Shown: positions 10,729-50,345 of the stretch, one piece after another
Layout: every line of letters starts with the position of its first letter
Numbering within the stretch: the first letter of the stretch is position 1
NCBI GenBank assembly: GCA_947385945.1
Contig: CANDMY010000006.1
Span: forward strand, 1-64,000
Direction: 5' to 3'
DNA length: 64,000 nucleotides
Origin: an uncultured Clostridia bacterium
Lineage (GTDB): Bacteria > Bacillota > Clostridia > Lachnospirales > Lachnospiraceae
Position numbers and translations under genes: made by a program
The notes under the pieces: model-generated
Seen by the model: the letters and a program-made list of their open reading frames with translations, nothing else
Database searches by the model: none
Told to the model about the DNA's origin: nothing

Positions 10729-10977
10729 TGGGGGGAGGACGCCAGAGTATGGCATTGCAGTACTGTTTCGCTCTACAGAAAGTAAGAAGCTCTAAGACTT
10801 CTGAATTTAGATGCATCCAACCGGACGGACCGGGGTGCAATTCGCCCGTGCTGCGGGCTAAACACACCCCTTTTTTTGCCATTCAAGAATGGCAAAAAAT
10901 CCTCATGAATCGACAGAAGTCTAAAAGCTTCTAACTTTCCTCCGAAGTCACAGTACTGCAATGCCATACTCTGGCTG
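10729..10977 (-). repeat. F1 structured repeat, copy C (reverse orientation)
   Basis: Reverse complement carries the F1 core. Arms 'tatggcattgcagtact' and 'agtactgcaatgccata' are perfectly complementary. Confidence 0.85.
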
Positions 10978-11299: not shown

Positions 11300-11382
11300 T
11301 GCCGCAGGCCGGACTTGAACCGGCACGAGGTCGCCCCCGCTAGATTTTGAGTCTAGTGCGTCTGCCATTCCGCCACTGCGGC
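11300..11382 (-). tRNA. tRNA-Leu (anticodon CAA), type II with a long variable arm. CCA is not encoded.
   Basis: Hand fold: acceptor GCCGCAG/CTGCGGC, 3-bp D-stem, anticodon stem CTAGA/TCTAG with loop CTCAAAA, long variable arm, T-arm GCCGG-TTCAAGT-CCGGC, discriminator A. Confidence 0.8.
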
Positions 11383-14824: not shown

Positions 14825-14965
14825 ACTCCTAAACTACATCCTTCCTAATTCAAAATCCCATCTCTATCCACACACCAAAAAATATCATACCACTCCTCAT
14901 TCCACCAAACCACCCCAAAATTCCCTCCCATTCCCACCTGAATAAAAAATAAAAATCAAATCTAT

Positions 14966-15232
14966 CGCCAGAAAGAACCAGCTGGAGTTTGGAAGCCCTT
15001 TCTCTATGCAGTGACTTCGGAGAAAAGTTAGAAAGTCTTATGCCTCTGTCGATCTCCTAGGATTTTTGCCATCTTCTGATGGCAAAAAAGGGGTGTGTTT
15101 AGCCCGCTGCACGGGCGAATTGCACCCCGGTCCGTCCGGTTGGATATATTTTCATTCAGAGGCATAAGACTTTCTTACTTTTCGGAGAGCGGAACAGCAT
15201 AGAGAAAGGGCTTCCAAACTCCAGCGTCCTCT
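14966..15232 (+). repeat. F1 structured repeat, copy D
   Basis: F1 core with the variant 'gccatcttctgatggc' central hairpin. Its arms 'gtttggaagccctttctctatgca' and 'agcatagagaaagggcttccaaac' are complementary and related to the arms of copy B. Confidence 0.85.
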
Positions 15233-24832: not shown

Positions 24833-25026
24833 TGTGGTTCTCCTTACCCATAGTGTTACAAACCTGCTTCGATTAATCGAACATATATACGATTGTAGCA
24901 GATTTTCTATTATCTGACAAGACCTTAATTCGAATCGATCGAATAGTAATCTGATTGTTTATAGTGAGCCAGAAAATTATTTATAGTGAGCCGAATGATT
25001 GTTTATGGCGATCCGGACGATTGCAT

Positions 25027-25150
25027 CTGCTGGTGAATCCCTGCTGGGGCCGTTTGCACTAAGGCTTCCTCGCAGCGGACACATAAGGCACGAAAGTACC
25101 GTGCCTAAGTGCCGGCGGGAAGCAATACCCCTGCAGGGATTCACCAGCAG
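25027..25150 (+). repeat. F2 structured repeat, copy 1. Core is 'tgctggggccgtttgcactaaggcttcctcgcagcggacacataaggcacgaaa..accgtgcctaagtgccggcgggaagcaatacccctgca', closed by the variable stem 'ctgctggtgaatccc/gggattcaccagcag'.
   Basis: Core repeated at 25785, 36195 and 36751(-). An internal hairpin 'aggcacg-aaa..ac-cgtgcct' is visible. Confidence 0.85.
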
Positions 25151-25192
25151 CTACAATCTGTCTATCTCAACGGAATGTTTGATAGAATCGCT

Positions 25193-25459
25193 TTACCAAG
25201 TTGTTTTCTGATCTTTATGTGTATAATGTTTCATCTGTACTAATAAATTGGACAATTTTTCTTGATAATATTCTTTCTGTTTTTCATCCAGTTTATTTGC
25301 ATCAAGATATTCCTGAAAAACCTTTTGAAATTCCTTTAAATTTTCTTGTGCTGCGTCTTTATAATTATTTGACATATTCATTTGTATCTTTTGTAAAATT
25401 GTCTCTAACTGAGCATTTTTCTTTGCTTTATTTTTCAGATCTTTAAAAAATAAAAACAC
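25193..25459 (-). CDS. Hypothetical small Lys/Glu-rich protein (88 aa)
   Basis: Intact ORF between two F2 copies. No recognisable domain. Whether it is coding is uncertain. Confidence 0.35.
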   Translation of the reverse strand: MFLFFKDLKNKAKKNAQLETILQKIQMNMSNNYKDAAQENLKEFQKVFQEYLDANKLDEKQKEYYQEKLSNLLVQMKHYTHKDQKTTW

Positions 25460-25667
25460 GGATTTAATTTAACCTCCTAAATCTTTAAATTAAAAACATA
25501 TCGCCTATTTTATATAAAAATGCGGAGAGAAATCCATATTTTTCCTCTCCGATCTATTTACCATCTCTATTATAAAAGCAGCCTTAAAATTTTTCAACTA
25601 TATTTTATTATAAATATAATATTCCATGTAAAACATAGGAAAATTTTCACTAAAGCATAAAAATCAA

Positions 25668-25770
25668 AGGAAATTCGCAATCCGCTTCACTACTCGCTCA
25701 TAACCTCATAGCCACTATCGCAACTTTTCAATGAAAGTCTAAAGTCTGCACTTCCTTGATGAGGTTAAAA
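25668..25770 (+). repeat. F3 structured repeat, copy 2 (internally deleted)
   Basis: Shares F3 5' part 'ggaaattcgcaatccgct..ctcataacctcatagc..ctatcgca' and 3' end 'cttccttgatgaggttaaa'. Confidence 0.7.
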
Positions 25771-25784
25771 TAAGGTACAAAACA

Positions 25785-25923
25785 GCTCGCCCTAAGGGAT
25801 CTTTCTTTGCTGGGGCCGTTTGCACTAAGGCTTCCTCGCAGCGGACACATAAGGCACGAAAAGACCGTGCCTAAGTGCCGGCGGGAAGCAATACCCCTGC
25901 AAAGAAAGATCCCTTAGGGCGAG
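25785..25923 (+). repeat. F2 structured repeat, copy 2. Closing stem is 'gctcgccctaagggatctttcttt / aagaaagatcccttagggcgagc'.
   Basis: Identical core. A different, perfectly complementary closing stem. Confidence 0.85.
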
Positions 25924-26031
25924 CGTCAGGACTACCCAAAACAATTCTAAATCAAACAATCCCAAACCACTCCAAACAATCGAAACTCTACAATAAATGA
26001 AAAACTTAGTATAAAATATATTATACCTATT

Positions 26032-28443: not shown

Positions 28444-28663
28444 CCTTCTTACCTCTCACTCTATTCATAAAATTTACAAAAAATTCCCGTCCTGCTTTCC
28501 TCTCTTCTCCTAATATATCACGAAATCTGCATTTTCACAACCTGATTTTACATTTTCACAATGCAAATTTCCTTTTTCAACCTAACAATACCCATTCCCA
28601 AGCAGCTCCATCTCGCCTTTTATTCTTTTTATCAATAAAAATACAGGAAAAAACAGCCAGAGT

Positions 28664-28916
28664 TGGGAAGCGATTCTTTTTTGCTGTGACTTCGGAGAAA
28701 AGTTAGAACGTCTTATGCCTCTGTCGATCCACTAGGATTTTTTGCCATTTCCAAATGGCAAAAAAAGGCACGTGTTTAGCCTCCTGCAGAGGCGAATTGC
28801 GTGCCGATCCGTCCGGTTAGATGCACCTAAACTCAGAGGCATTAGCCGTTCTTACTTTTCGGAGAGCGGAACAGCAAAAAAGAATCGCTTCCAAACTCTA
28901 GCGTCCCCCTCCCCCC
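28664..28916 (+). repeat. F1 structured repeat, copy E (divergent core with compensatory changes)
   Basis: Core helix 'ggggtgtg..cgaattgcacccc' becomes 'ggcacgtg..cgaattgcgtgcc'. Helix 'gcccgctgcacgggc' becomes 'gcctcctgcagaggc'. Central hairpin 'gccattcccgaatggc' becomes 'gccatttccaaatggc'. Pairing is preserved in all three. Confidence 0.85.
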
Positions 28917-31873: not shown

Positions 31874-32036
31874 CAAAGGAAATAAGGAAATTCGGAATCT
31901 GCTCCTTCCTCATAATCCTATGCTGCTATCGCTGCTTGTCAGATGGAACTTGCCCCCAACTGACACAAGGAAGTCCCCCAACCCACCGCTTTCGCCTTCA
32001 CGGCTTAGAAGCAGAGGACCTCCTTGATAGGTTAAA
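31874..32036 (+). repeat. F3 structured repeat, copy 3 (diverged)
   Basis: Shares F3 hairpins 'gctgctatcgctgc' and 'aagtccccc..', and the 3' end 'ccttgataggttaaaa'. Confidence 0.75.
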
Positions 32037-32982: not shown

Positions 32983-33056
32983 TCGAGGTGACGTGATTCG
33001 AACACGCGACTTCTACGTCCCGAACGTAGCGCTCTACCAAACTGAGCCACACCTCG
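32983..33056 (-). tRNA. tRNA-Pro (anticodon CGG)
   Basis: Hand fold: acceptor CGAGGTG/CACCTCG, D-arm GCTC-AGTTTGGTA-GAGC, anticodon arm CTACG-TTCGGGA-CGTAG, T-arm GCGTG-TTCGAAT-CACGT, 74 nt. Confidence 0.8.
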
Positions 33057-33082
33057 AACATAACACGGTTACGTTTAACCGA

Positions 33083-33444
33083 TGGAGCTGAGGGGAATCG
33101 AACCCCTGTCCGAAGACTCCTCCATCAAAGCATCTCCCACCACAGTCCCTGTTTTATGCATAGCCTTTTTCTATACGGTTCCCTCTATCGGACACCCATG
33201 GACAGGTTTCCGGCTTTAGTAGCTTCATTTTTCTTTTATACCCTCAAAGCTTTGGATACAAAGTTCCTTACCTCCTTGATGCCGGATTCTTAAGCAGTAA
33301 GCTACCTAAGAGCGACAGCTGCTATTAAGCAGCGAACGCGTAATCTTCGTTTGCGTTTATATTTAATTTTCGGTTTACTAATGCGGTTCCGACCCGCAGG
33401 TGGCTTCTCCAACTTCATAATCCCCGTCGAAACCAGTACAACCC
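33083..33444 (-). ncRNA. ssrA: tmRNA (ssrA) with tag reading frame ANEDYAFAA** (+ coordinates 33325..33354)
   Basis: 5' end 'GGGGTTGTACTGGTTTCGACGGGGATT' and 3' tRNA-like end 'GGACAGGGGTTCGATTCCCCTCAGCTCCA' with a G3:U70 pair. Internal 'gca aac gaa gat tac gcg ttc gct gct taa tag'. About 362 nt. CCA is not encoded. Confidence 0.9.
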
Positions 33445-33700
33445 CGAATTTTTCAATTCTTTCAGTTGAATGGTTCTTACAGAACAATAGTTATTATACT
33501 GATAAAATAATCATTCGTCAAGTATTTTTTTTTATTTTTTAAAAAAAGTCCGATAAAACAAAAAACCTCTTTCCTGCTTTAACTGCCCTTTTCCTCCCAA
33601 TACTTATGTACGCAAAAAAAGACTGCTGCAAAACAATAAATAGTATTATGATTGCCCCTATATTCTGTAAAATTACTATATTTTGCAGCAGCCCCTTTTT

Positions 33701-35829: not shown

Positions 35830-36051
35830 TCAACTATTCTCCTGAGATGCTTTTTCCTCTTGTGCTTTCTTTTTTCGATTCCGTGTCCCAAGAATTCCGC
35901 CGATACGTCCGGTTTCCCGTGCAGAAAGCGTTCCCCATCCCCCTTTCAGCACTTTATCTAACACCCCAATTTCCTCTGCAATTTCTAATTTCATCTCATC
36001 CTCTGGTGTTAAATTCTCTAAATCAATTTCTTTCTTTTTCTTAGTCGGCAT
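35830..36051 (-). CDS. Small acid-soluble spore protein, alpha/beta type
   Basis: 'MKLEIAEEIGV' and 'ARETGRIGGILGTR' match the conserved SASP blocks (KYEIAQEFGV; ANGSVGGEITKR). A GGAGGAG RBS precedes the ATG at 36051. Confidence 0.7.
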   Translation of the reverse strand: MPTKKKKEIDLENLTPEDEMKLEIAEEIGVLDKVLKGGWGTLSARETGRIGGILGTRNRKKKAQEEKASQENS

Positions 36052-36194
36052 TACTCTCTCCTCCAATACTCTAATTTTACCAAGAGTATTTCCCTAATTT
36101 TCAAGGCTTATTCAATTTCTAAAGAAAAGTTATCAGAAAAAAGGAAAACCACTTCAGCAATTATAAACCAGATATTGGTATTGTAGAACCGGAC

Positions 36195-36334
36195 GCAGGT
36201 AGCATAGAGAGATTCTTTGCTGGGGCCGTTTGCACTAAGGCTTCCTCGCAGCGGACACATAAGGCACGAAAAGACCGTGCCTAAGTGCCGGCGGGAAGCA
36301 ATACCCCTGCAAAGAATCTCTCTATGCTACCCGC
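36195..36334 (+). repeat. F2 structured repeat, copy 3. Closing stem is 'gcaggtagcatagagagattcttt / aaagaatctctctatgctacccgc'.
   Basis: Identical F2 core. Confidence 0.85.
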
Positions 36335-36336
36335 TG

Positions 36337-36545
36337 TTTCGTTCCCCCTAGAAATAATGCCTCATAAACATTTTTATTCTACCTGTTGGTTTATTCCTCC
36401 TGGAAACAATACCTCACAAACATTTTTACTCTGCCTATTAACTTGTTCCTCCTGGAAATGATACTTCACAAAAATATTTTATTCGGTCTGCTGGTTTATT
36501 CCTCCTAAAAACAACGCCCCGTAAAAATTCTCTACTCCGACTGTT
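36337..36545. repeat. Tandem repeat of about 3.5 copies of a roughly 60-bp unit ('...ttattcctcctggaaacaatacctcacaaacatttttactctgcctgttgg...')
   Basis: Direct reading. Degenerate periodicity of about 59-62 bp. Confidence 0.75.
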
Positions 36546-36546
36546 G

Positions 36547-36678
36547 GAATTCAAAAGAAATTTGTAATCCTATGCTGCTATCGCAGCTTGTCAAATAGGG
36601 CTTGTACCCCACCTGCCCCCAACCCACCGCTTTCGCCTTGGCGGCTTAGAAGCGGGGGACTTCCTTGATGAGGTTAAA
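36547..36678 (+). repeat. F3 structured repeat, copy 4
   Basis: Contains 'gctgctatcgcagc' and 'cgccttggcggcttagaagcgggggacttccttgatgaggttaaa'. Confidence 0.8.
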
Positions 36679-36750
36679 CTATCTAAAATCACACAAAAAC
36701 GGTTTTAATCAACCAAAATACTGCGACTGTTCCGGTTGGAATATACAGCT

Positions 36751-36884
36751 GACACCACTGGATGAATCTCTGCAGGGGTATTGCTTCCCGCCGGCACTTA
36801 GGCACGGTCTTTTCGTGCCTTATGTGTCCGCTGCGAGGAAGCCTTAGTGCAAACGGCCCCAGCAGAGATTCATCCAGTGGTGTC
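36751..36884 (-). repeat. F2 structured repeat, copy 4 (inverted relative to copy 3). It is followed by a twice-repeated 'gatgtcagcgtccccccaaca'.
   Basis: Reverse complement of the F2 core. Closing stem 'gacaccactggatgaatctct / agagattcatccagtggtgtc'. Confidence 0.85.
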
Positions 36885-36962
36885 AGCGTCCCCCCAACAG
36901 AAAATCACCCAATGATGTCAGCGTCCCCCCAACATATATTCGTTTAAATTCAAATCATTCGC

Positions 36963-39900
36963 TTAAATTCGAATCTCTTTCCCCAATCCAAAAGAATACA
37001 ATATCATCTCCCCAACTTCCTCCCCTGTCATCTGCTCCAATGCCATTTTATAAAGTTCAAACTGCCTCTCATACCGCATCACCAGCACTTCCTCCTGCCC
37101 TTCATAAACTGCATCTGTCTTATAATCCAACAGTACCAACTTCCCCTCCTCTTCAAAATAAACATCAATCACCCCCTGCAGTAAAATTAACTCCTGACTC
37201 TCTGTCTCCCGATATAACTTCCAAGCAGGAATCCCCACTACAAACTGCGTCTCCCGATAAATCTGCCCTCTCTTTTCTGCTTCCCGCATCCGCTTTGCCG
37301 TCTGAGAGGTTAAAAACGCCACAATCCTCTGATTCCAAATCAACTTAGCATTTTCTTTTGAAAGTTTCTTTTCCTCCACTAACTGCCGCTTTAACTGCCC
37401 GATTCGTTTTGAAATCTCGTTCTCTTCCATTCCATCAAATTCTGCTAAATTCATATTTTCCAAAAAAATATGATAGGCGGTTCCTCGTGTTGCTCCTCCC
37501 ACACCTTCTAATTTTCCCTGCATAAATTTCGGCAGAATCTCTTCTTTTTGTTCGATTAATAATGCCGTATCTTCTTCTGCTTCCATTTCTCTTTGATTCA
37601 AACGTTTCTGCTCCGATACGGAAGTTTTTGCATAAAGTGACATTTCTTTCTGATAAGGATACAGATAAGAAAACCTCTTTTCTATCTCTTCTCTTAACTG
37701 AGGATCAAAACATTGCGAAAAATCCAGTTTCTTCTGATAATCGGATAAATCCATATTTTCTTTCTGCCGCAGAATCTCTCCCTCTGCAACTCCCTTTGGT
37801 GTATAAAATGTAACTTCACAACTTTCTTTTGTGATCGCCGGTACAATCCAATCCAGATAGGACTCCGCTTTTGCAAGGGAAGCATAGGACAATGCCGCTC
37901 CTCCGTTTGTTTCTCTCCGCCACTTTTCATATCGTTCTGTCATCTTATCTGTTACACCGGTTAAAATCAGCTTTTCTTTTGCCCTTGTCAGTGCTACATA
38001 TAAAATCCGCAGTTCTTCTCCAAGGTTTTCTAAACGAATACTTTTTTGAATAATTCGCTTGATTAAAACAGGAGCTTTCGTTCTGCGTTCATAATTTACA
38101 AAATCTAATCCCACTCCTAAGTCGGGATGAATCACTGCTTTCTGCATAGCATCCATTTGATTAATCTTTTTTCCCATTCCGGCTACAATAACAATCGGAA
38201 ATTCCAGTCCTTTGCTCTTATGGATACTCATAATCCGAACGGTGTTGTCCTGTTCATTTACAATCGATGCTTCTCCGAAGTCCACCTCATATTGGTTGAG
38301 TTTTTCAATATAGCGGATAAAGTGAAAGACACCCCGATAACTGGTTGCTTCAAAGGCAATCGCTTTTTCTAACAGCATATCTAAATTCATTCTTCGTTTT
38401 GTTCCTGCCGGCATGGAAGCGGCATAATCTCCATAACCTGTTACTTTTAAGACTAATCGTATTAATTCATGAATAGGGGTACATGCTGCTTGATCCCGGA
38501 AATATTCTAACTGTTCTAAAAATGCTTTTACTTTTTTATCTAGTTCTTCTTCTTCAACTGGAGAAAGCAGTGCTTCATAGAGATCTCCCTCTAGATGAGC
38601 CGAACGGATCTTTGCCAGTTCTAAGCTGCTGAAATGTCCAATCGGCGAGTGCAGAACCCCTGCTAATGGAATGTCCTGTCTGGGATTGTCAATAATTCTT
38701 AATAGGTTTAATACCGTCTGTACTTCCAAGGCGGTAAAATATCCGGTCTGGGACTGGGTATGGGCAGGAATTCCTTCTTCCATGCAGATCGTTACAATCG
38801 TCTCTCCCCATCCTGCTACTGTACGCAAAAGGACAACAATATCCCTGTACTGTGCAGTCCGATAGGTACCCGACTTTTTGTCTAGAACTTTCAGACCGGT
38901 ATCTGGATGGGTCAGTCTTCGAATCTGACCGGCTATTACCTTTGCTTCCATTACCAGGGCTGTCATTTCTGCCGTTACCAGATCGGTGGTATCCTCTTCT
39001 TGGGATTTATTGATCAGCAGTAACTCGGTCTTTCGCTCCTGTGCTTCTGAACCGCCTTCTGGAAATGCTGCTCCCGGATAGAGTGCTGCTGCGTTGTCAT
39101 AGGTTACGCCTCCTAATTCTTTCCGCATAATCTGATAAAAGATATCATTTACGCTCTGTAAGACCTCTGGACGGCTGCGGAAGTTTTTATGGAGATCAAT
39201 TTTTTGATAATTGCTTTCTTCTGTGGTATATGTCTGATATTTTTCCACAAAAAGCTCGGGTCTTGCTAAACGAAACTTATAGATGCTTTGTTTTACATCT
39301 CCTACCATAAAGACATTGGGAATTTCTTCCTGATAGCGGGAAACGCTAAATAAAATTGCTTCCTGTACTAAATTGCTGTCCTGATATTCATCGATCATAA
39401 TCTCTGTAAACTGATCCCGATATTCTTTTGCAATCAGTGACGGCACTCTTCCCTCTTTTGTCTGTTCGGTCAGGATATTAAGTGCCAAATGTTCTACATC
39501 CGAAAAATCCATTAAATTGCGTTCCCTTTTTTTTGCCTGATATCTGGTATGAAAGTCTAATGTCAGCCTTACCATTACCGCCATAGTCTTGCTTACATTT
39601 GCCATATTTTCCAGCATCTTATCGATTGGCTGAAAATAGAACTGCTTTCCGATTCCCCGAATTTCCTCTTTGATTCGATCTCGAATCTCTTTGACTCTTG
39701 CCTTTTTTTCAGCATCGATCGAGGAATCTTTTTTTGAGGATAAGCGGATAAAATTTACTTCTTTTAAAGCCTTTCCAAAACTTTGATAGGATTTACACTG
39801 CACCAATTTTTCTAAATAATAGAAATCTGACTCAATAGCTGGAAGATACTGATAGGGACCTCTCTCCTGGCTGCAGATCTGTTTTGCCAGATCCAACTGT

Positions 39901-40643
39901 CTGCAGCAGTCCGTGATGAGTTTTTTTAGATATTCCATTAAAAACTGTACGGATTTAGTCTGCTCTAATGCTTTTCTATAAGCCTGTTCCATTGTTTTTT
40001 GTTCTTCCTGATCCAAAACTTCTTCCTCGGCTTGTTCCTCCATAGGGTATTCATTTAAGCAGCCTTTTAGCCATTCCTCCGGATCGGGATAACTCATTGC
40101 AAATTCATAGAGCCGCAAAATCAAGTCTTCTAATCCGCTGTCATTTTTTCCGGTTGAATAACTCTCTACAAAATGAAAAAACTCCGGATCTGCCTCGCTG
40201 TAGTAATCCTCTAACAGTCCTGCTACTACATCTGATTTTAACAGTTTTCGCTCCCCCTCATCTCCAATTCGAAAAGAGGGATCAAAGTCTAACAGATCAA
40301 AGTGATCTCGAATCACACTCAGACAAAAACTGTCAATTGTCATAATTTGTGCCGTATGAACTAATGTCTGCTGTCTCTGCAAATGGGCATCTTCTGGGGC
40401 ATCTTCTAATGCTCGTTCAATAGCAGAAGTAATTCGTTCTCTCATCTCTGCAGCCGCAGCATTGGTAAATGTAACAATTAAAAGCCGGTCAATATCCACC
40501 GGATTCTCCCGATCTGTAATCATCTGAATAATTCGTTCTACCAAAACGGCTGTTTTTCCTGAACCTGCCGCTGCCGAAACCAAAATTGCCCTATTCCTTA
40601 AATAGATAACCTGTTCCTGTTCCTTTGTCCAATTTACTGCCAC
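36963..40643 (-). CDS. addA: ATP-dependent helicase/nuclease subunit A (AddA)
   Basis: 1226 aa. UvrD-like helicase motifs ('AAAGSGKTAVL', 'DEYQDSN', 'GDVKQSIY') and a C-terminal PD-(D/E)xK nuclease ('GVIDVYF..LLDYKTD'). Confidence 0.95.
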   Translation of the reverse strand: MAVNWTKEQEQVIYLRNRAILVSAAAGSGKTAVLVERIIQMITDRENPVDIDRLLIVTFTNAAAAEMRERITSAIERALEDAPEDAHLQRQQTLVHTAQIMTIDSFCLSVIRDHFDLLDFDPSFRIGDEGERKLLKSDVVAGLLEDYYSEADPEFFHFVESYSTGKNDSGLEDLILRLYEFAMSYPDPEEWLKGCLNEYPMEEQAEEEVLDQEEQKTMEQAYRKALEQTKSVQFLMEYLKKLITDCCRQLDLAKQICSQERGPYQYLPAIESDFYYLEKLVQCKSYQSFGKALKEVNFIRLSSKKDSSIDAEKKARVKEIRDRIKEEIRGIGKQFYFQPIDKMLENMANVSKTMAVMVRLTLDFHTRYQAKKRERNLMDFSDVEHLALNILTEQTKEGRVPSLIAKEYRDQFTEIMIDEYQDSNLVQEAILFSVSRYQEEIPNVFMVGDVKQSIYKFRLARPELFVEKYQTYTTEESNYQKIDLHKNFRSRPEVLQSVNDIFYQIMRKELGGVTYDNAAALYPGAAFPEGGSEAQERKTELLLINKSQEEDTTDLVTAEMTALVMEAKVIAGQIRRLTHPDTGLKVLDKKSGTYRTAQYRDIVVLLRTVAGWGETIVTICMEEGIPAHTQSQTGYFTALEVQTVLNLLRIIDNPRQDIPLAGVLHSPIGHFSSLELAKIRSAHLEGDLYEALLSPVEEEELDKKVKAFLEQLEYFRDQAACTPIHELIRLVLKVTGYGDYAASMPAGTKRRMNLDMLLEKAIAFEATSYRGVFHFIRYIEKLNQYEVDFGEASIVNEQDNTVRIMSIHKSKGLEFPIVIVAGMGKKINQMDAMQKAVIHPDLGVGLDFVNYERRTKAPVLIKRIIQKSIRLENLGEELRILYVALTRAKEKLILTGVTDKMTERYEKWRRETNGGAALSYASLAKAESYLDWIVPAITKESCEVTFYTPKGVAEGEILRQKENMDLSDYQKKLDFSQCFDPQLREEIEKRFSYLYPYQKEMSLYAKTSVSEQKRLNQREMEAEEDTALLIEQKEEILPKFMQGKLEGVGGATRGTAYHIFLENMNLAEFDGMEENEISKRIGQLKRQLVEEKKLSKENAKLIWNQRIVAFLTSQTAKRMREAEKRGQIYRETQFVVGIPAWKLYRETESQELILLQGVIDVYFEEEGKLVLLDYKTDAVYEGQEEVLVMRYERQFELYKMALEQMTGEEVGEMILYSFGLGKEIRI

Positions 40644-43600
40644 TCTTCTCCCTCCTCTATCCGAATCATTTGTCCCGCTGCTTCTTCTACTTCTTTCTGC
40701 ATCTTTTGTAAAATATCCTCATTGTCCATCTCATGCAGTCTTCGGTATTCATATCCTGTACTCTTTTCGTCAAATCCGCAGACCTCCCGAAATTCACAGT
40801 AATCGCATCCGGTTTCGGTTCCTTTCCGATACGGGGCAATCTGTGTATTTCCATCTAATATTTCTGCTCCCATTTGGCGTATCCGATTTCGTACATAAGC
40901 AGACACTGCTTCAAACTGCCTGGTATCGACAGCAGAAGAATTTTTACTTAAACTCCCATCTTTATTATAACTAATCGGAATGACATCAGAATGTTTATCC
41001 ATAGAGGAATCTAAAAGTGCAATTACTTCCGATGCACGGTTGACTAATCCGTTCATCTTTAGCTTAGAAAGCAGTTCCCTTTCAATCTGTTCCTCCCCCA
41101 TCTCTTCTGTCTCTTCAATTACCGGATCTTTAATATTATAATAAAAAATTCCTGCAGGAATCACGGTTTTCTCCACCCGCTTCCGCTGTTCTGTCTCCAT
41201 TGCCGCTTCCATATAAACTACCAGCTGAATCTGCAGACCATAGTAGACCGAGGACAGATTAAATTCAGCAACCCCAGATTTATAATCAATTACTTTAATA
41301 TAGATATGTTCTTCATCCTCATAGAGATCCATCCGATCCAACCGTCCGGCAAGGTACATATTTTCCTGATCCGAAATCGGAATCGTAAGGGCATCTAACT
41401 GATCGGCAGGAGAAAAAAAGACCTCATAATTAACTGGCTCAAACTTTCCTTTCTGCAGCTGTTTCTTCAATGCCCAGACTGTCCGATTTACAATCCTCTC
41501 TAATCGATCAATAAAATAAGCATTTCTTGCCGTACTCTGCAGCACATGATTTCCATAGTCAGCGGACGCCTCCTCCACAGATTCTTTTACCATCTTCTGC
41601 TGATCTTCTGGCGTTACCATACTCCATTTCATCCCGTTTTCCTTTATCTTATTCGAATAACGCTCAATCGAATTATGAAACAGATTTCCCATATCCACCG
41701 CTGCCATTTCAAATTCCTGACGTTTTGCAAGCCGAAGCCCATAGGTTAAAAAATGAGCAAATGCACAGGCAGCATAACGTTCTAACCGAGTTACACTATT
41801 AATCGGCTGCGGTCCATACAGTGCCGCCGCTGCCAGCTTTCCTATTCCGCTTTCGGTATTGTGATAGGAAACCGCTTCAAATAGCTGATCCATTCGCCCC
41901 TTCCAATTTTCTTGTCCCGCATACCAAGAAGTCAGTTCCAAAAAAATGGGATCGGCATTCTGCTGAATCGGATTTTGGCTAAATTCTAACAGCTTCGAAA
42001 TCCAATAGTGTAATGTCCCCTCTGGTGTTGTAATCTGCTGCAGCTCTTTCTCTCTCTTTTCCTCGTCCTCCTGCTCCAGTGCCGGAAATAATTTTTCAAT
42101 CGTATAGACTAAATAAGAGGGACGAATCGCTTCACCTGCCTGCGTATTTCTGCTGTAACTTAAATACAGCCGTTCAGAAGGCTTCGTCAGATTCAGATAC
42201 AAATAGAACTTCTGAATATAAGCATTTTCTTTTTGCGTAGGAGAAAGCGTAATCTTCTCTTCTTTTAGAAACTGCCGCTCCATCTGTGAGAACATCCCGC
42301 CTTTTCCACTGTTCTTAGGAATAATCCCGTCATTTAATCCCAAAAAGAACAAAACCCGAATTTCATTCAGACGAGTCCGCTCCATATCTCCAATTAAAAT
42401 CTGATCGATCGAAGGAGGAATCAATCCCACTTTTAATTCTTCAAATCCCGCATCCAAAATCCCGTTTAACTCCTGTGCCGAAATCTGTTCCTCTCCCAGC
42501 AATCCCACCACTTTATCAAATAATTCCATTACTAACGGATAGACCTGCTTATATTCTTTTTCCTTTGCCAAATGCCCCTGCTCCCGAAATGTACTCTCAT
42601 ATGCTTCCATTTTCTCCTGCAGACCGATTTCCTTTAAAAACCCATATAATGCTTCTATCTTTTCCTTTACGGTTCCTTTTTTCCGCTTCCAGACAGAAGA
42701 AAGGGTTTGAATCGGCAGCAGCACTGCCTCCCGAAGCTGATTCATCCGCTCTAACTCAAGCGGCTCGTCCTTTTTCATACTGCGTACCCAAAGTTTTTCC
42801 CACTGTCTCTGTCCCCGAATCCCCATAGCCAGACAATAATTTTCCAATAAATCTACATCTTCCCGTGCAATCGAAGTCATATTGCTTTTTAAATAACGAA
42901 AAACACTCTCATAAGAAAAATTATCTGCTATCATCTCCAATGTACTGCGAATAAACTCCACACAAGGATTTCCCATCATTCCCTTTTTCTGATCGACAAA
43001 ATAAGGAAGCTGATTTTCATTTAACACTTCCTCTAAACTATCCCGATATCCTTCCAAATCCCCTGCTATAATTGCAATATCTCGATAGCGGTACCCCCGT
43101 TCCCGTACTAAATTGACAATCTCTCTGGCAACATATGCCGCCTCTTTTGCCGGATTCCCCGCTACATGAATCGATACTGCCTCCTGCTTTTTCTTATAAG
43201 CCAGATAGGGATAACGAAATAAATTCCTCTCCAGCCAAAAAAGTGCCTCTGCCTGCCGGAATCGGTGATGTTCCTCCCCTGTCAGTACAATATCCTTCTC
43301 TTTAGGAATCTGCCGCTCCTCCGCCAAACGGATCAGATGGGAGATCATCTCTTTACTCATATGAAATAATTCCTGCTCCCCGCCAATCCGATAGGGATTT
43401 TCCCGTGCATCTATTGTAACTGTCAGAGTTACTTTAGGAGAAAGCATCAATAACAATCCAATCAACTGATACTGAATCGGTGTAAAACCAGTAAAACCAT
43501 CCAGCCAGACACTGCTTCTCTTTACCATATTAGACTCTGGTATCACTCGGCAGAGCACATCTAACTGCTCCTCTTTTGTAATATAATGCTCCTTTGTAAA

Positions 43601-44104
43601 CCGTTCAAATTCCTGTATAATAACCTGCATATCGTTTAACTTTGCATAAAGCATCGGTTTCTTTTTCGCACATGCCAGCATTTTCTCCTGCTCTTCTTCC
43701 CGAATTCCATACTGATAAAATTCCGATACAACCGATTTTATCTCACTTACCATCCCCGGTGTATGCCGTTTCTGTCCATAAAGTTTTAACTCTTCCTTCT
43801 TATTCTCCAGCACCTTCCGAAGCAGCAGATTTTTTCCGGTATCATCCAAAACAGGAAGCTGTGCCGCCCCCACTTCCGATAAAACCCGATAGGAAAGCCG
43901 CCCAAAACTTAAAATATCAATATTCATCACGCCATGTCTGGGATGAAGTTCTACAATATCCTTCTGTGTTTGCATAGAAAATTGTTCTGGTACAATTAAT
44001 AGAAAATTTTTCTCTGGATGTTCCATAGACTCCCGAATTAATTCCTGATATAAATATCTCGATTTTCCCGAACCAGAACCGCCTAAAATCAGTTGTAATG
44101 ACAT
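40634..44104 (-). CDS. addB: ATP-dependent helicase/nuclease subunit B (AddB)
   Basis: 1156 aa. N-terminal Walker A 'GGSGSGKS'. C-terminal nuclease and Fe-S Cys cluster ('CDYCEFREVC'). 10-nt overlap with addA. Confidence 0.9.
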   Translation of the reverse strand: MSLQLILGGSGSGKSRYLYQELIRESMEHPEKNFLLIVPEQFSMQTQKDIVELHPRHGVMNIDILSFGRLSYRVLSEVGAAQLPVLDDTGKNLLLRKVLENKKEELKLYGQKRHTPGMVSEIKSVVSEFYQYGIREEEQEKMLACAKKKPMLYAKLNDMQVIIQEFERFTKEHYITKEEQLDVLCRVIPESNMVKRSSVWLDGFTGFTPIQYQLIGLLLMLSPKVTLTVTIDARENPYRIGGEQELFHMSKEMISHLIRLAEERQIPKEKDIVLTGEEHHRFRQAEALFWLERNLFRYPYLAYKKKQEAVSIHVAGNPAKEAAYVAREIVNLVRERGYRYRDIAIIAGDLEGYRDSLEEVLNENQLPYFVDQKKGMMGNPCVEFIRSTLEMIADNFSYESVFRYLKSNMTSIAREDVDLLENYCLAMGIRGQRQWEKLWVRSMKKDEPLELERMNQLREAVLLPIQTLSSVWKRKKGTVKEKIEALYGFLKEIGLQEKMEAYESTFREQGHLAKEKEYKQVYPLVMELFDKVVGLLGEEQISAQELNGILDAGFEELKVGLIPPSIDQILIGDMERTRLNEIRVLFFLGLNDGIIPKNSGKGGMFSQMERQFLKEEKITLSPTQKENAYIQKFYLYLNLTKPSERLYLSYSRNTQAGEAIRPSYLVYTIEKLFPALEQEDEEKREKELQQITTPEGTLHYWISKLLEFSQNPIQQNADPIFLELTSWYAGQENWKGRMDQLFEAVSYHNTESGIGKLAAAALYGPQPINSVTRLERYAACAFAHFLTYGLRLAKRQEFEMAAVDMGNLFHNSIERYSNKIKENGMKWSMVTPEDQQKMVKESVEEASADYGNHVLQSTARNAYFIDRLERIVNRTVWALKKQLQKGKFEPVNYEVFFSPADQLDALTIPISDQENMYLAGRLDRMDLYEDEEHIYIKVIDYKSGVAEFNLSSVYYGLQIQLVVYMEAAMETEQRKRVEKTVIPAGIFYYNIKDPVIEETEEMGEEQIERELLSKLKMNGLVNRASEVIALLDSSMDKHSDVIPISYNKDGSLSKNSSAVDTRQFEAVSAYVRNRIRQMGAEILDGNTQIAPYRKGTETGCDYCEFREVCGFDEKSTGYEYRRLHEMDNEDILQKMQKEVEEAAGQMIRIEEGEEWQ

Positions 44105-44227: not shown

Positions 44228-44470
44228 GGAAATAACGCCAGAGTACTTGAAAGGGAACTGTTCCGCTCTCCGAAAAGCAGAAGCTCTAAGACTTCTGAAT
44301 CTAGGCATATCCAACCGGACGGATCGGGGTGCAATTCGCCCGTACAGCGGGCTAAACACACCCCTTTTTTTGCCATTCGAGAATGGCAAAAAATCCTAGT
44401 GGATTGACAGAAGTCTAAGAGCTTCTAACTTTCCTCCGAAGTCACAGTTCCCTTTCAAGTACTCTGGCTG
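44228..44470 (-). repeat. F1 structured repeat, copy F (reverse orientation)
   Basis: Reverse complement carries the F1 core. Arms 'tacttgaaagggaact' and 'agttccctttcaagta' are complementary. Confidence 0.85.
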
Positions 44471-44965
44471 TATTGTCTCACAATCTACTTTTTTTCTCTT
44501 TGCTCCATTATATTCTTATTCTTTTTTGTTAAATTTCCTTCTTTCTTTTTTTATTAAAAATAATTTTAGAATTTTTGCATTGGTCAAAGCGGATTGCGAA
44601 TATCCGATTTGACTATCCCTATCAGACATTTCTCTATATCAGCCGTAATCATTTTATGCTTGTATTTTACACACCAAACAATATGATATTGGATGGAATA
44701 TACCTATCCACGTCCATGAGTCACTTCCATATAGAATCACCTCGTTATACAAACGATAATAGATGTATGTTGTTATATCAATTATTTTTAGCATTATTAC
44801 TTGAAATTTAATTAACATATGTGAGCAATTCATCCCACGACTAAATGCTCATGTACGGTAAAGAAACAAGAAACCGAAAACAAGAGATAGACCTCCAGCA
44901 CCACACTATTCCGAACCAAAGACCAAAAGACAAGCATGATGGAATCCCTCTCTCATTCCTTTATG

Positions 44966-49183: not shown

Positions 49184-49563
49184 AAAAAACTCCTTTCCAA
49201 ACAAAAAAACACTAAACATACAATATGTCCAGTGCACTTCTAAAACCATCGGCTATTGCAAATATAATTACAACTTACACCTACTAATTTATATGCACAG
49301 ACATATCAGACCTACCTGCGTAACTGTGCATCCAATCAAAAACACAATTACTTCTAAGTACGTCTGTCATACATGTACATATCATTCATTGTAAAATGTA
49401 AGTTCTGCATTTTCACGTTCTCCTAAACTTTTTTAATAACTTACCATAATTCTATTTATATGTCAAGAAATATTTCTGAAACGAACCATATAACTTTATT
49501 TTTGATTTTAAAATATATATCATTCATTCCATATCAACCCCAAACCAACAGTCAAATCGGATA

Positions 49564-49716
49564 TTCGCAATCCGCTTTGCTACTTGCTCATAACCTCATA
49601 GCTTCTATCGCAGCTTTTCAGTGGGAGTCTGCACTCCCACTGAAACAAAGAAGTCCCAACCCACCGCTTTCGCCTTGGCGGTTTAGAAGCGGGGGACTTC
49701 CTTGATGAGGTTAAAC
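49564..49716 (+). repeat. F3 structured repeat, copy 5 (near-identical to copy 1)
   Basis: 'aatcggatattcgcaatccgctttgctacttgctcataacctcatagc...cttgatgaggttaaa'. Confidence 0.85.
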
Positions 49717-49946: not shown

Positions 49947-49999
49947 CAAAAAACTCTACAGATGAATGAATCAACTCTAACCTTACAGGCAGGAAAAGA

Positions 50000-50256
50000 C
50001 AGCCAGAGTGGGAAAGCCATTTCTTCCCGCTGTGACTTCGGAGGAAAGTTAGAATGTCTTATGCTTCTGTCGATCCACTAGGATTTTTTGCCATTCTCGA
50101 ATGGCAAAAAAAGGGGTGTGTTTAGCCCGCAGCACGGGCGAATTGCACCCCGGTCCGTCCGGCTGGATGCACCTATCCCCAGAAGCATTAGACATTCTTA
50201 CTTTCCGCAGAGCGGAACAGCGGGAAGAAATGGCTTTCCCACTCTAGCGTCCTCCC
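50000..50256 (+). repeat. F1 structured repeat, copy G
   Basis: F1 core. Arms 'tgggaaagccatttcttcccgct' and 'agcgggaagaaatggctttccca' are complementary. Confidence 0.85.
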
Positions 50257-50345
50257 CTTCCCCACTCTAGCGTCCTCCCCTTCCCCACTCCAGCGTTCTC
50301 CCCTTCCCCGCTCCAACATCCTCCCCCCAATCCCCTCACTCTCAC
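50241..50345. repeat. C-rich tandem repeat, '(c)cactctagcgtcctccccttcc' in 3-4 copies, extending the 3' terminus of F1 copy G
   Basis: Direct reading. Confidence 0.75.

Follow-up and report, generated by a model that had tools for sequence, protein, structure and literature searches.

Three hairpin-forming repeat families fill the intergenic gap between addA and a spore protein gene in a mouse-gut Lachnospiraceae bacterium

Introduction

The pneumococcal SPRITE is an interspersed repeat in which an 18-bp duplex is combined with a U-rich tract and which is enriched at the 3' ends of genes (PMC3049150), and its co-option as a terminator has been suggested. BOX elements, composed of boxA, a variable number of boxB and boxC, and the BIMEs of E. 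coli are modular mosaics of palindromic units in alternating orientation, with a tandem module that varies in copy number or sequence between strains (PMC3049150). The REP sequences and REPINs mobilised by RAYT transposases, described chiefly from Proteobacteria, are extragenic hairpins present in tens to hundreds of copies, which occur in inverted arrangements and leave no target-site duplication, each REPIN being a pair of short REPs in inverted orientation, in which the stems are conserved and the loops vary more (PMC3116915); their stems carry mismatches, and the population within a genome evolves whilst the structure is kept. Template switching is known to homogenise the arms of inverted repeats and to invert the spacers between them (PMC8604942), and to create and maintain perfect RNA hairpins (PMC8794818).

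Here we describe a locus within a 64,000-nt stretch of DNA (the window) from a mouse-gut Lachnospiraceae bacterium; the metagenome-assembled genome (MAG) MGBC128194, with 98-99% identity on three contigs, belongs to the same species. Separating addA from a gene for a small acid-soluble spore protein (SASP) is a gap of 860 bp made up of three repeat families which are non-coding, hairpin-forming and confined to this bacterial lineage. One of these, F2, is a new family of structured repeats of ~165 nt, documented here as abundant and previously undescribed in uncultured mouse-gut Lachnospiraceae.

F2 is closest in kind to the pneumococcal SPRITE and BOX elements and to REPINs, with an unusual 'conserved core, free stem' design. 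Like SPRITE, it is an interspersed non-coding Firmicute repeat with a long duplex followed by a U-rich tract, it lies near gene 3' ends and exceeds the normal length of a terminator, and for both termination is a candidate role; however, the F2 stem is variable rather than conserved and encloses an invariant, asymmetric core of ~90 nt, both flanks carry motifs, copies form tail-to-tail pairs, and the sequences are unrelated. All the REPIN features listed above that concern placement, copy number, hairpins, mismatched stems and a within-genome population keeping its structure recur in F2, but the design is reversed, with one hairpin of ~140 nt, and no RAYT gene was found here (432 kb). The locus resembles BOX and BIMEs as a mosaic with a variable tandem module, but that module is an amplified F2 flank and not an independent box, the units are unrelated, and F3, another of the families, is nested inside. 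Finally, the F2 arms and the core of one copy, F2d, recall quasipalindrome template switching in their homogenised arms, one-step compensation and inverted spacers (PMC8604942, PMC8794818, PMC7202029), although template switching is a mutational process rather than a family of elements, we deduce its action on F2 from patterns, and the inverted F2 spacer of ~80-90 nt is far longer than published examples.

Genomic setting of the locus

According to the list of open reading frames and Pfam, addB, addA, the SASP gene and then sufC- and sufD-like genes all lie on the minus strand around the locus (Table 1), and an identical SASP protein with the same neighbours recurs in other assemblies. Since addB and addA are both on the minus strand, the locus starts right after the addA stop codon, with the SASP gene downstream, and the statement of the earlier note that the repeats lie immediately upstream of addAB, where they could affect its transcription, is a strand error. 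The gap measures 911 nt from the addA stop codon to the SASP start codon. A candidate SASP promoter motif, which in our own reading may be of the forespore-sigma type, is located between F2a and the start codon, and is kept in the two closest related species compared (L168 and L170), both of which lack the repeats. The annotation is thus corrected: the repeats follow addBA and leave the SASP promoter free, and do not form an addAB regulatory region.

Table 1. Positions of genes, repeats and motifs at the locus and of a second F2 pair in the window.
Feature	Positions	Strand	Details
addB-addA operon	36963..44104	-	addB 40634-44104, addA 36963-40643; repeats at operon 3' end
SASP gene (alpha/beta-type small acid-soluble spore protein, 73 aa)	35830..36051	-	ATG at 36051; Pfam SASP match
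Candidate SASP promoter motif	36084..36115	-	TTGAATAAGCC, 11-nt spacer, GGAAATACTC; putative
F2a, full unit	36189..36356	+	5' flank motif CCGGACGC 36189-36196; hairpin 36195-36334; core 36220-36309; 3' flank motif 36333-36356
52-nt tandem array, 4 units and a partial fifth	36334..36545	+	each unit opens with a copy of the F2 3'-flank motif, TGTnTATTCCnnCnGGAAACA
F3 copy, internally shortened	36550..36679	+	paralogues within the window
F2b, full unit	36728..36895	-	3' flank motif 36728-36749; hairpin 36748-36887; core 36773-36862; 5' flank GGGGGGACGC 36886-36895
Degenerate tandem duplicate of F2b 5' flank and outer arm	36892..36930	-	TRF period 35, 2.2 copies (array 36857-36934); direct-repeat family D2
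19-nt x2 duplication across addA stop codon	36938..36975		TRF; missing in related species
Second tail-to-tail F2 pair in the window	25014..25924		F2c 25014-25172, +; F2d 25786-25924, flanks minus, core inverted

Composition of the repeat block

The pieces that the earlier note described are all present and chance explains none of them: F2a and F2b lie in inverted orientation, bracketing a tandem array and an F3 copy, and the locus holds no credible open reading frame, the only ones being of at most 61 aa and every one inside repeats. The same architecture is found in the independent assemblies L162 and L164 and is therefore not an assembly artefact. As inverted repeats, F2a and F2b (36191-36337 and 36745-36891) have arms of 147 nt that are 85% complementary, and their inner 108 nt are 96% identical. 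Each folds as a hairpin of ~140 nt with 31-nt arms, with RNA folding energies of -85 and -94 kcal/mol for F2a and F2b respectively (z = -10.6 and -12.6; 0 of 200 shuffles as stable), and the hairpins are also very stable under DNA parameters (z = -9.8 and -11.3).

The tandem array is real, with a period of 52 nt in place of the ~60 bp first reported: TRF placed 3.3 copies with 75% matches at 36342-36514, and copies are in register across 36323-36531. Its units align to the 3' flanks of five other F2 copies, and the F2 3'-flank motif with which each unit begins shows the array to be an amplified F2a flank, with slippage beside the hairpin as the simplest explanation.

The F3 copy matches 31913-32036, 49655-49716 and 2134-2188, and F3 has paralogues at four other window sites. 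Full-length F3 (e.g. 2020-2195, minus strand) has an 8-bp closing stem around three hairpins (z = -10.9); the shortened copy at the locus has z = -2.4.

The F2 family

Searching with a 20-mer of the F2 core recovered 39 MGBC128194 loci and two from another Lachnospiraceae MAG. A profile search put the number of full or partial copies at 50 in those 39 loci, with a further 3 in the second MAG and 4 in the window. Copies are also present in two sister species. The family breaks short-read assemblies, and many copies sit at MAG contig ends, so that the real copy number is higher than counted.

The anatomy of F2 was derived from an ungapped alignment of 39 full copies with the core set in one fixed orientation, in which the core is invariant and the arms are variable. 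The 5' flank motif, (G)ATCCGGACGC, is followed by a stem of 26-29 bp whose outer ~18 bp vary among copies and whose inner arms are semi-conserved (GAnTCTYTGC-T-GGGG, with an invariant T.T mismatch). Within the enclosed core a 15-bp helix and the internal loops are invariant, the apical 7-bp stem has eight haplotypes, all fully compensated, and the 3' flank, CTGTnTATTCCAACCGGAACA, consists of the U-rich tail TGTnTATT and then CCAACCGGAACA. No flank motifs stand alone within the window, so these motifs belong to F2. Across the 51 pairs tested, 97.8% of cells were paired on the fixed-orientation strand and 99.0% on the other, compared with only 37-48% in controls with slid partner columns; both sides had changed in 29 of the 51, and 0 of 500 shuffles matched the observed values.

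Rfam covariance models run against F2, F3 and the locus gave nothing at gathering score, and in E-value mode only generic long-hairpin miRNA models (e.g. mir-786, 34 bits against a threshold of 93), a result that makes a ribozyme, riboswitch or omega RNA of a known kind improbable. Neither F2 nor F3 occurred in viral contigs or among phage and plasmid records, and strings of the F2 core sequence occurred nowhere in the full text of papers. A metagenome scan with the 17-mer TTCCTCGYAGCGGRCAC returned 120 chance matches from unrelated environments and no true F2, this pattern being too short; a longer one spanning both F2 subfamilies combines CTAAGTGCCGRCGGGAA and CTCGYAGCGGRCAC at fixed spacing. 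A coding role for the core was rejected: there is one open frame, but its variation is compensatory for structure and it has no start codon or ribosome-binding site.

Insertion history and strain variation

The gene order addB-addA-SASP-sufC is kept in species whose AddA is 90, 85 and 75% identical, and their addA-SASP spacers, of 160, 58 and 166 nt respectively, are without F2 or F3. Such compact, repeat-free spacers in related species show that the ~750-bp block is a lineage-specific insertion. Among the four assemblies with an identical SASP protein and the window itself, F3 is absent at the locus from L163, present once in L162, L164 and the window, and present twice in L165. The comparison therefore turned up both outcomes that the earlier note had envisaged, an empty site and different cargo. 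The sequence of the array also differs among strains, whilst F2a and F2b are fixed in all four assemblies; the block was therefore built by several events and not by one. F3 is a separate structured repeat, polymorphic and demonstrably still changing at this site. Elsewhere, a species with 84% identical RuvA lacks F2c and F2d, and L017 lacks the second F2 of the pair at L016.

Change of F2 over time

Orthologous F2 copies of two species (L016 and L017) differ by five fully compensated double changes in the arms and one base change in the core, and the adjoining spacer differs by ~15%, from which the arms would evolve at about the neutral rate whilst the core appears to be constrained or homogenised. 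F2 paralogues share on average 47% of their arm positions, the distribution tailing off continuously to as many as 16 of 18, a spread that fits a family duplicating over a long period. In the covarying apical stem, wobble intermediates occur in 0 of 39 copies, and between strains that are ~99% identical F2 differs at this locus only in the central base of GANTC, which flips between A and T in each arm. The core of F2d is inverted in the window and in the independent assembly L166 and canonical in L176 (mid-contig) and L002 (MAG), with identical arms; F2d thus has the segment between its inverted repeats in both orientations, as an inverton does, and is the only one of ~58 copies in which core orientation differs, F2a, F2b and F2c being constant in 5-6 assemblies. 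Because perfect arms, one-step compensation and spacer inversion match known products of template switching, we infer that this process maintains F2.

Proposed origin of the locus

The reading that we prefer, with moderate confidence, is that the locus is a lineage-specific mosaic of three structure-maintained interspersed repeats, in which F2 is a mobile, terminator-like element of the SPRITE, REPIN and BOX kind. It sets out from direct observations, namely the anatomy, covariation, gene context, empty sites, F3 copy-number differences, core inversion and lack of target-site duplication. The repeats would have piled up in the stretch from the addA stop codon to the SASP promoter, with F2 spreading, now or in the past, to intergenic sites without target-site duplication and with its 5' end toward the nearest gene, landing either singly past a co-oriented stop codon or as tail-to-tail pairs. 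The arms would then diverge almost neutrally, with replication template switching between them (quasipalindrome correction) restoring complementarity and, now and then, inverting the core. Hairpin-induced slippage may in turn have produced tandem duplications of flank plus arm, the 52-nt array included. The sense transcript would carry a very stable hairpin and a U-rich tail, so that F2 most probably serves the gene upstream of it, addBA in this case, in the manner of a terminator or by protecting the 3' end, like the pneumococcal SPRITE.

Against this reading, the near-identical cores across copies and species require purifying selection or gene conversion, neither of which a purely selfish element supplies in any obvious way, and searches of 432 kb of DNA from the clade, with IS200, IS608 and RAYT proteins as queries, revealed no transposase or recombinase that could be its partner.

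Mobility and the search for a transposase

No target-site duplication was detected at F2, the longest string shared between the two flanks of a copy averaging 4.13 nt, against 4.13 +/- 0.14 nt when flanks were shuffled between copies. For this reason, and given that the outer arms are only ~47% identical between copies, F2 does not fit the pattern of a MITE derived from a DDE-transposase insertion sequence. Neither the 432 kb nor plasmids or phages yielded an insertion sequence with F2-like ends. A REP system comprises a single-copy cognate RAYT (Y1) gene bracketed by its repeats; tblastn with the queries named above revealed no intact Y1 or RAYT gene in the 432 kb, but only a dead IS605 remnant at 44614-44845 (Pfam Y1_Tnp, E = 3e-6). 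This remnant is 92% identical to the left end and tnpA start of an element elsewhere, of which tnpA is frameshifted and tnpB full-length. The hairpin CACGACTTTAGTCGTG is found at the left and right ends both of the remnant and of its relative, L181, and blastn of these end hairpins against F2 and F3 found no similarity, so that F2 lacks the end hairpins expected of a PATE derived from IS200/IS605. F2 is no classic REP or REPIN unit either, being a single hairpin with a conserved core and variable stem instead of imperfect 20-40-nt palindromes whose stem is conserved and which bear a 5' tetranucleotide and commonly form inverted doublets. The TnpA homology stops exactly where the 30-nt 5' motif of F3 starts; a derivation of F3 from IS200 tnpA was rejected, F3 abutting or truncating a dead insertion sequence, in what looks like nesting rather than ancestry. 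A second apparent TnpA match, in L035, was not confirmed by Pfam.

We regard it as unlikely that F2 serves a strand-specific single-stranded DNA transposase (RAYT or an IS200/IS605-type HUH enzyme), encoded elsewhere in the genome, as a giant non-autonomous substrate akin to REPINs or PATEs. In that case recognition and cleavage would be signalled by the core, the T.T mismatches and the flank motifs, and nothing but the folded hairpin would be required. The lack of target-site duplication and the strict maintenance of the hairpin fit such a substrate, as do conserved motifs at both feet of the hairpin, strand asymmetries (T.T mismatches and a wobble bias on the element's own strand) and the orientation bias of single copies, and the Y1 remnant indicates that the enzyme family was once in the lineage. 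However, no intact gene of the family was found in the 432 kb, the hairpins at the IS605 left and right ends are unrelated to F2, the conservation of REP units (20-40 nt, with conserved stems) is the opposite of that of F2, and the pairs contain both orientations.

Strand, gene context and possible function

The 5' flank of F2 always points to the nearest gene. Where both flanks of a single copy are resolved, the copy lies 12-120 nt past a co-oriented stop codon in every case; F2b lies 72 nt past that of addA. Within the 8 nt past the stem there are on average 4.8 T on the sense strand versus 2.1 on the reverse, with T152, T154, T156 and T158 nearly invariant. A consensus scan found no canonical terminator between addA and the SASP gene and made no terminator call for F2, the loop of which is far above 8 nt. 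The related species have no canonical terminator past addA either, so F2b replaced none, and since they also lack F2, a termination function is unnecessary at this site. For a Firmicute terminator the U-rich tail of F2 is weak, and the hairpin is much larger than any canonical one.

The position past stop codons, the U-rich tail and the T.T mismatches (one invariant, and one polymorphic but never A.A) suggest that F2 acts on the sense strand. Interior G.U-compatible mismatches number 12 on the strand antisense to the upstream gene versus 2, a bias which follows the element's own strand whatever the orientation of a copy to genes, and which argues against a role as sense-strand RNA.

That F2 copies are structured RNAs, whether sRNA genes or cis-regulatory, made from the strand antisense to the upstream gene, with a core binding a protein or ligand and the stem as scaffold, seems to us quite improbable. 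A core invariant in ~50 copies and across species beside almost neutral arms, the strong covariation and the higher pairing on the reverse strand that G.U-compatible mismatches allow would all suit such RNAs, but the reverse-strand unit has no conserved promoter or terminator around it, and F2 is missing at orthologous sites in close relatives. The apical stem, without wobble intermediates, fits correction at the DNA level better than RNA compensation; furthermore, dozens of near-identical copies per genome are atypical of regulatory RNA, and Rfam offers no match.

There is likewise a slim chance that F2 is the substrate of an undescribed strand-specific system, with a flippable core as protein-recognition module, a stem free to vary and two T.T mismatches marking the active strand. 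If so, F2 would, according to the enzyme involved, be a Firmicute counterpart of REPIN-RAYT with a giant substrate of a new kind, or a population of dozens of switches at gene ends that flip back and forth as RNA or DNA.

Paired copies and core inversion

At least 13 tail-to-tail pairs of F2 occupy intergenic regions, and two of these enclose small ordinary genes (a GNAT acetyltransferase and an 88-aa ORF), whilst the pair spacers have no sequence relationship to one another. None of the genes inside pairs proved to be a transposase, the candidates being the GNAT acetyltransferase, an ORF without Pfam match and a weak, sub-threshold match to DUF4230. Arm identity between pair members is no closer than between random copies (0.477 vs 0.475), which rules out recent inverted duplication as the origin of the pairs; pair members share core variants slightly more often (0.961 vs 0.940, p about 0.02).

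This sharing of core variants could also speak for a role of F2 at the DNA level, as a switch that works by recombination or inversion or as the binding site of a nucleoid or topology protein, with a core that flips between the arms, and so could the inverted core of F2d between identical arms, the A/T flips at the central N of GANTC in both arms and the BIME-like mosaic of alternating orientations. BIME sites bind gyrase and IHF. We nevertheless hold this reading to be very improbable: no copy of F2 has an invertase gene beside it, the neighbours being housekeeping genes, the core contains no promoter-like site, core orientation differs in only one copy, a spacer of ~80 bp is short for site-specific inversion, and rare spacer inversions are explicable by template switching alone (PMC8604942).

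The earlier note was right that repeat families nest here. Its other suggestion, a composite element, is hardly credible if it means that the whole block (F2b, F3, array, F2a) arrived in a single insertion as one foldback-type transposon with F2 as long terminal inverted repeats, for although two outward-facing F2 5' ends bound the block, three related species lack it whole and tail-to-tail pairs abound elsewhere, the arms of paired copies are unrelated, F3 is gained and lost independently of F2, L016 and L017 have a pair in one species and a single copy in the other, pair spacers are unrelated with two holding ordinary genes, and there is no target-site duplication.

Implications and minor features

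The F2 family enlarges otherwise compact intergenic spacers by three- to fifteen-fold. F2 is also an unusually clean natural long hairpin, the stem of which appears to diverge almost neutrally whilst staying perfectly paired around a loop that can invert. The evolution of hairpins by template switching could be studied with it, as could the question of whether terminator-like structures are able to spread as mobile DNA in Clostridia.

Two small features at the addA end of the gap had been overlooked previously, the 35-nt duplicate of F2b flank and arm and the 19-nt x2 duplication (Table 1). Duplicates of flank plus outer arm of the same kind adjoin F2 copies in L014, L028, L029, L009 and L035.

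Inversion and arm variation in the F2 and F3 repeats

The orientation of the asymmetric core of the hairpin repeat F2 is polymorphic between strains, as seen in the window copy F2d, where the core of ~90 nt is inverted in the window and in L166, another assembly covering the locus, with arms that are identical. Two other sequences have the core in its canonical orientation, the MAG contig L002 and a further assembly, L176, in which the copy lies mid-contig. A comparison of hairpin 1 of the structured repeat F3 between a locus from another assembly (L035, 6800-6870) and the window (36616-36680) showed that the L035 copy has its loop turned round with respect to the closing stem, and therefore loop inversion occurs in the F3 family also.

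The F2 arms vary at the central N of GANTC, which in four arms (window positions 36213, 36316, 36766 and 36869) is A in some strains and T in others, the strains being ~99% identical apart from this. Read in the orientation of the core, the position is paired or gives a T.T mismatch, and never A.A. A second F2 subfamily, found at two loci outside the window (L004, 4137-4293; L025, 3641-3799), carries compensated changes within the otherwise invariant helix, GCTTCC/GGAAGC becoming ATTTCC/GGAAAT, and appears to be relatively commoner in the sister-species MAG.

Genomic surroundings of the repeats

The small ORF of 88 aa lying between F2d and F2c had no Pfam match. It is kept in the relative with a RuvA of 84% identity, from which both F2 copies are missing, which shows that an ordinary small gene can be enclosed by a pair of F2 copies.

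The final 19 nt of addA, stop codon included, are duplicated in tandem on the margin of the inserted block of repeats, a duplication absent from related species. In L169, a contig of a related species with an 88% identical AddA, the 5' and 3' flank motifs of F2 (CCGGACGCCAG...CTGCTGTTTCCGTCTCTAGAAAAC) follow directly past the addA stop codon (6640-6700), separated by ~26 nt with no hairpin in between, the contig ending ~75 nt beyond them. These paired motifs could be a hairpin-less relic of F2 or its precursor.

The tnpA part of the dead IS605-family remnant comprises the first ~42 codons and matches Pfam Y1_Tnp (E = 3e-6). Over 232 nt the remnant is 92% identical to a tnpA-tnpB element from another assembly (L181), in a stretch made up of that element's left end and the beginning of its tnpA, a gene that is itself frameshifted. 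The window remnant is cut short precisely at a motif of 30 nt, which matches the 5' end of F3 copies at every base.

Features of the window, with positions and, where given, strand
Feature	Position	Strand	Remark
F2d	25786-25924
88-aa ORF	~25190-25456	minus
addA-end duplication	36938-36975
IS605-family remnant	44583-44845	minus	upstream of addB; left end and tnpA start
F3 5' ends identical to the 30-nt motif	2029-2058; 49550-49579
tmRNA gene	33080-33445
tRNA genes	32983-33056; 11300-11382
Further repeat sites	185-452, 28644-28911, 49990-50257
Further repeat sites	10778-10954, 44272-44448
Further repeat sites	4814-5029, 14961-15176
Further repeat sites	1-198
Further repeat sites	50234-50325

Some repeat is present in most intergenic regions of the window. 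Additional interspersed families of 268 nt, 177 nt and 216 nt occur there, together with a 75-nt module (five copies), and are adjoined by tandem arrays of 66 nt x3 and 23 nt x4. The plus strand of the whole window is strongly skewed (G 14.4%, C 26.5%), and the minus strand carries nearly all of the long ORFs.
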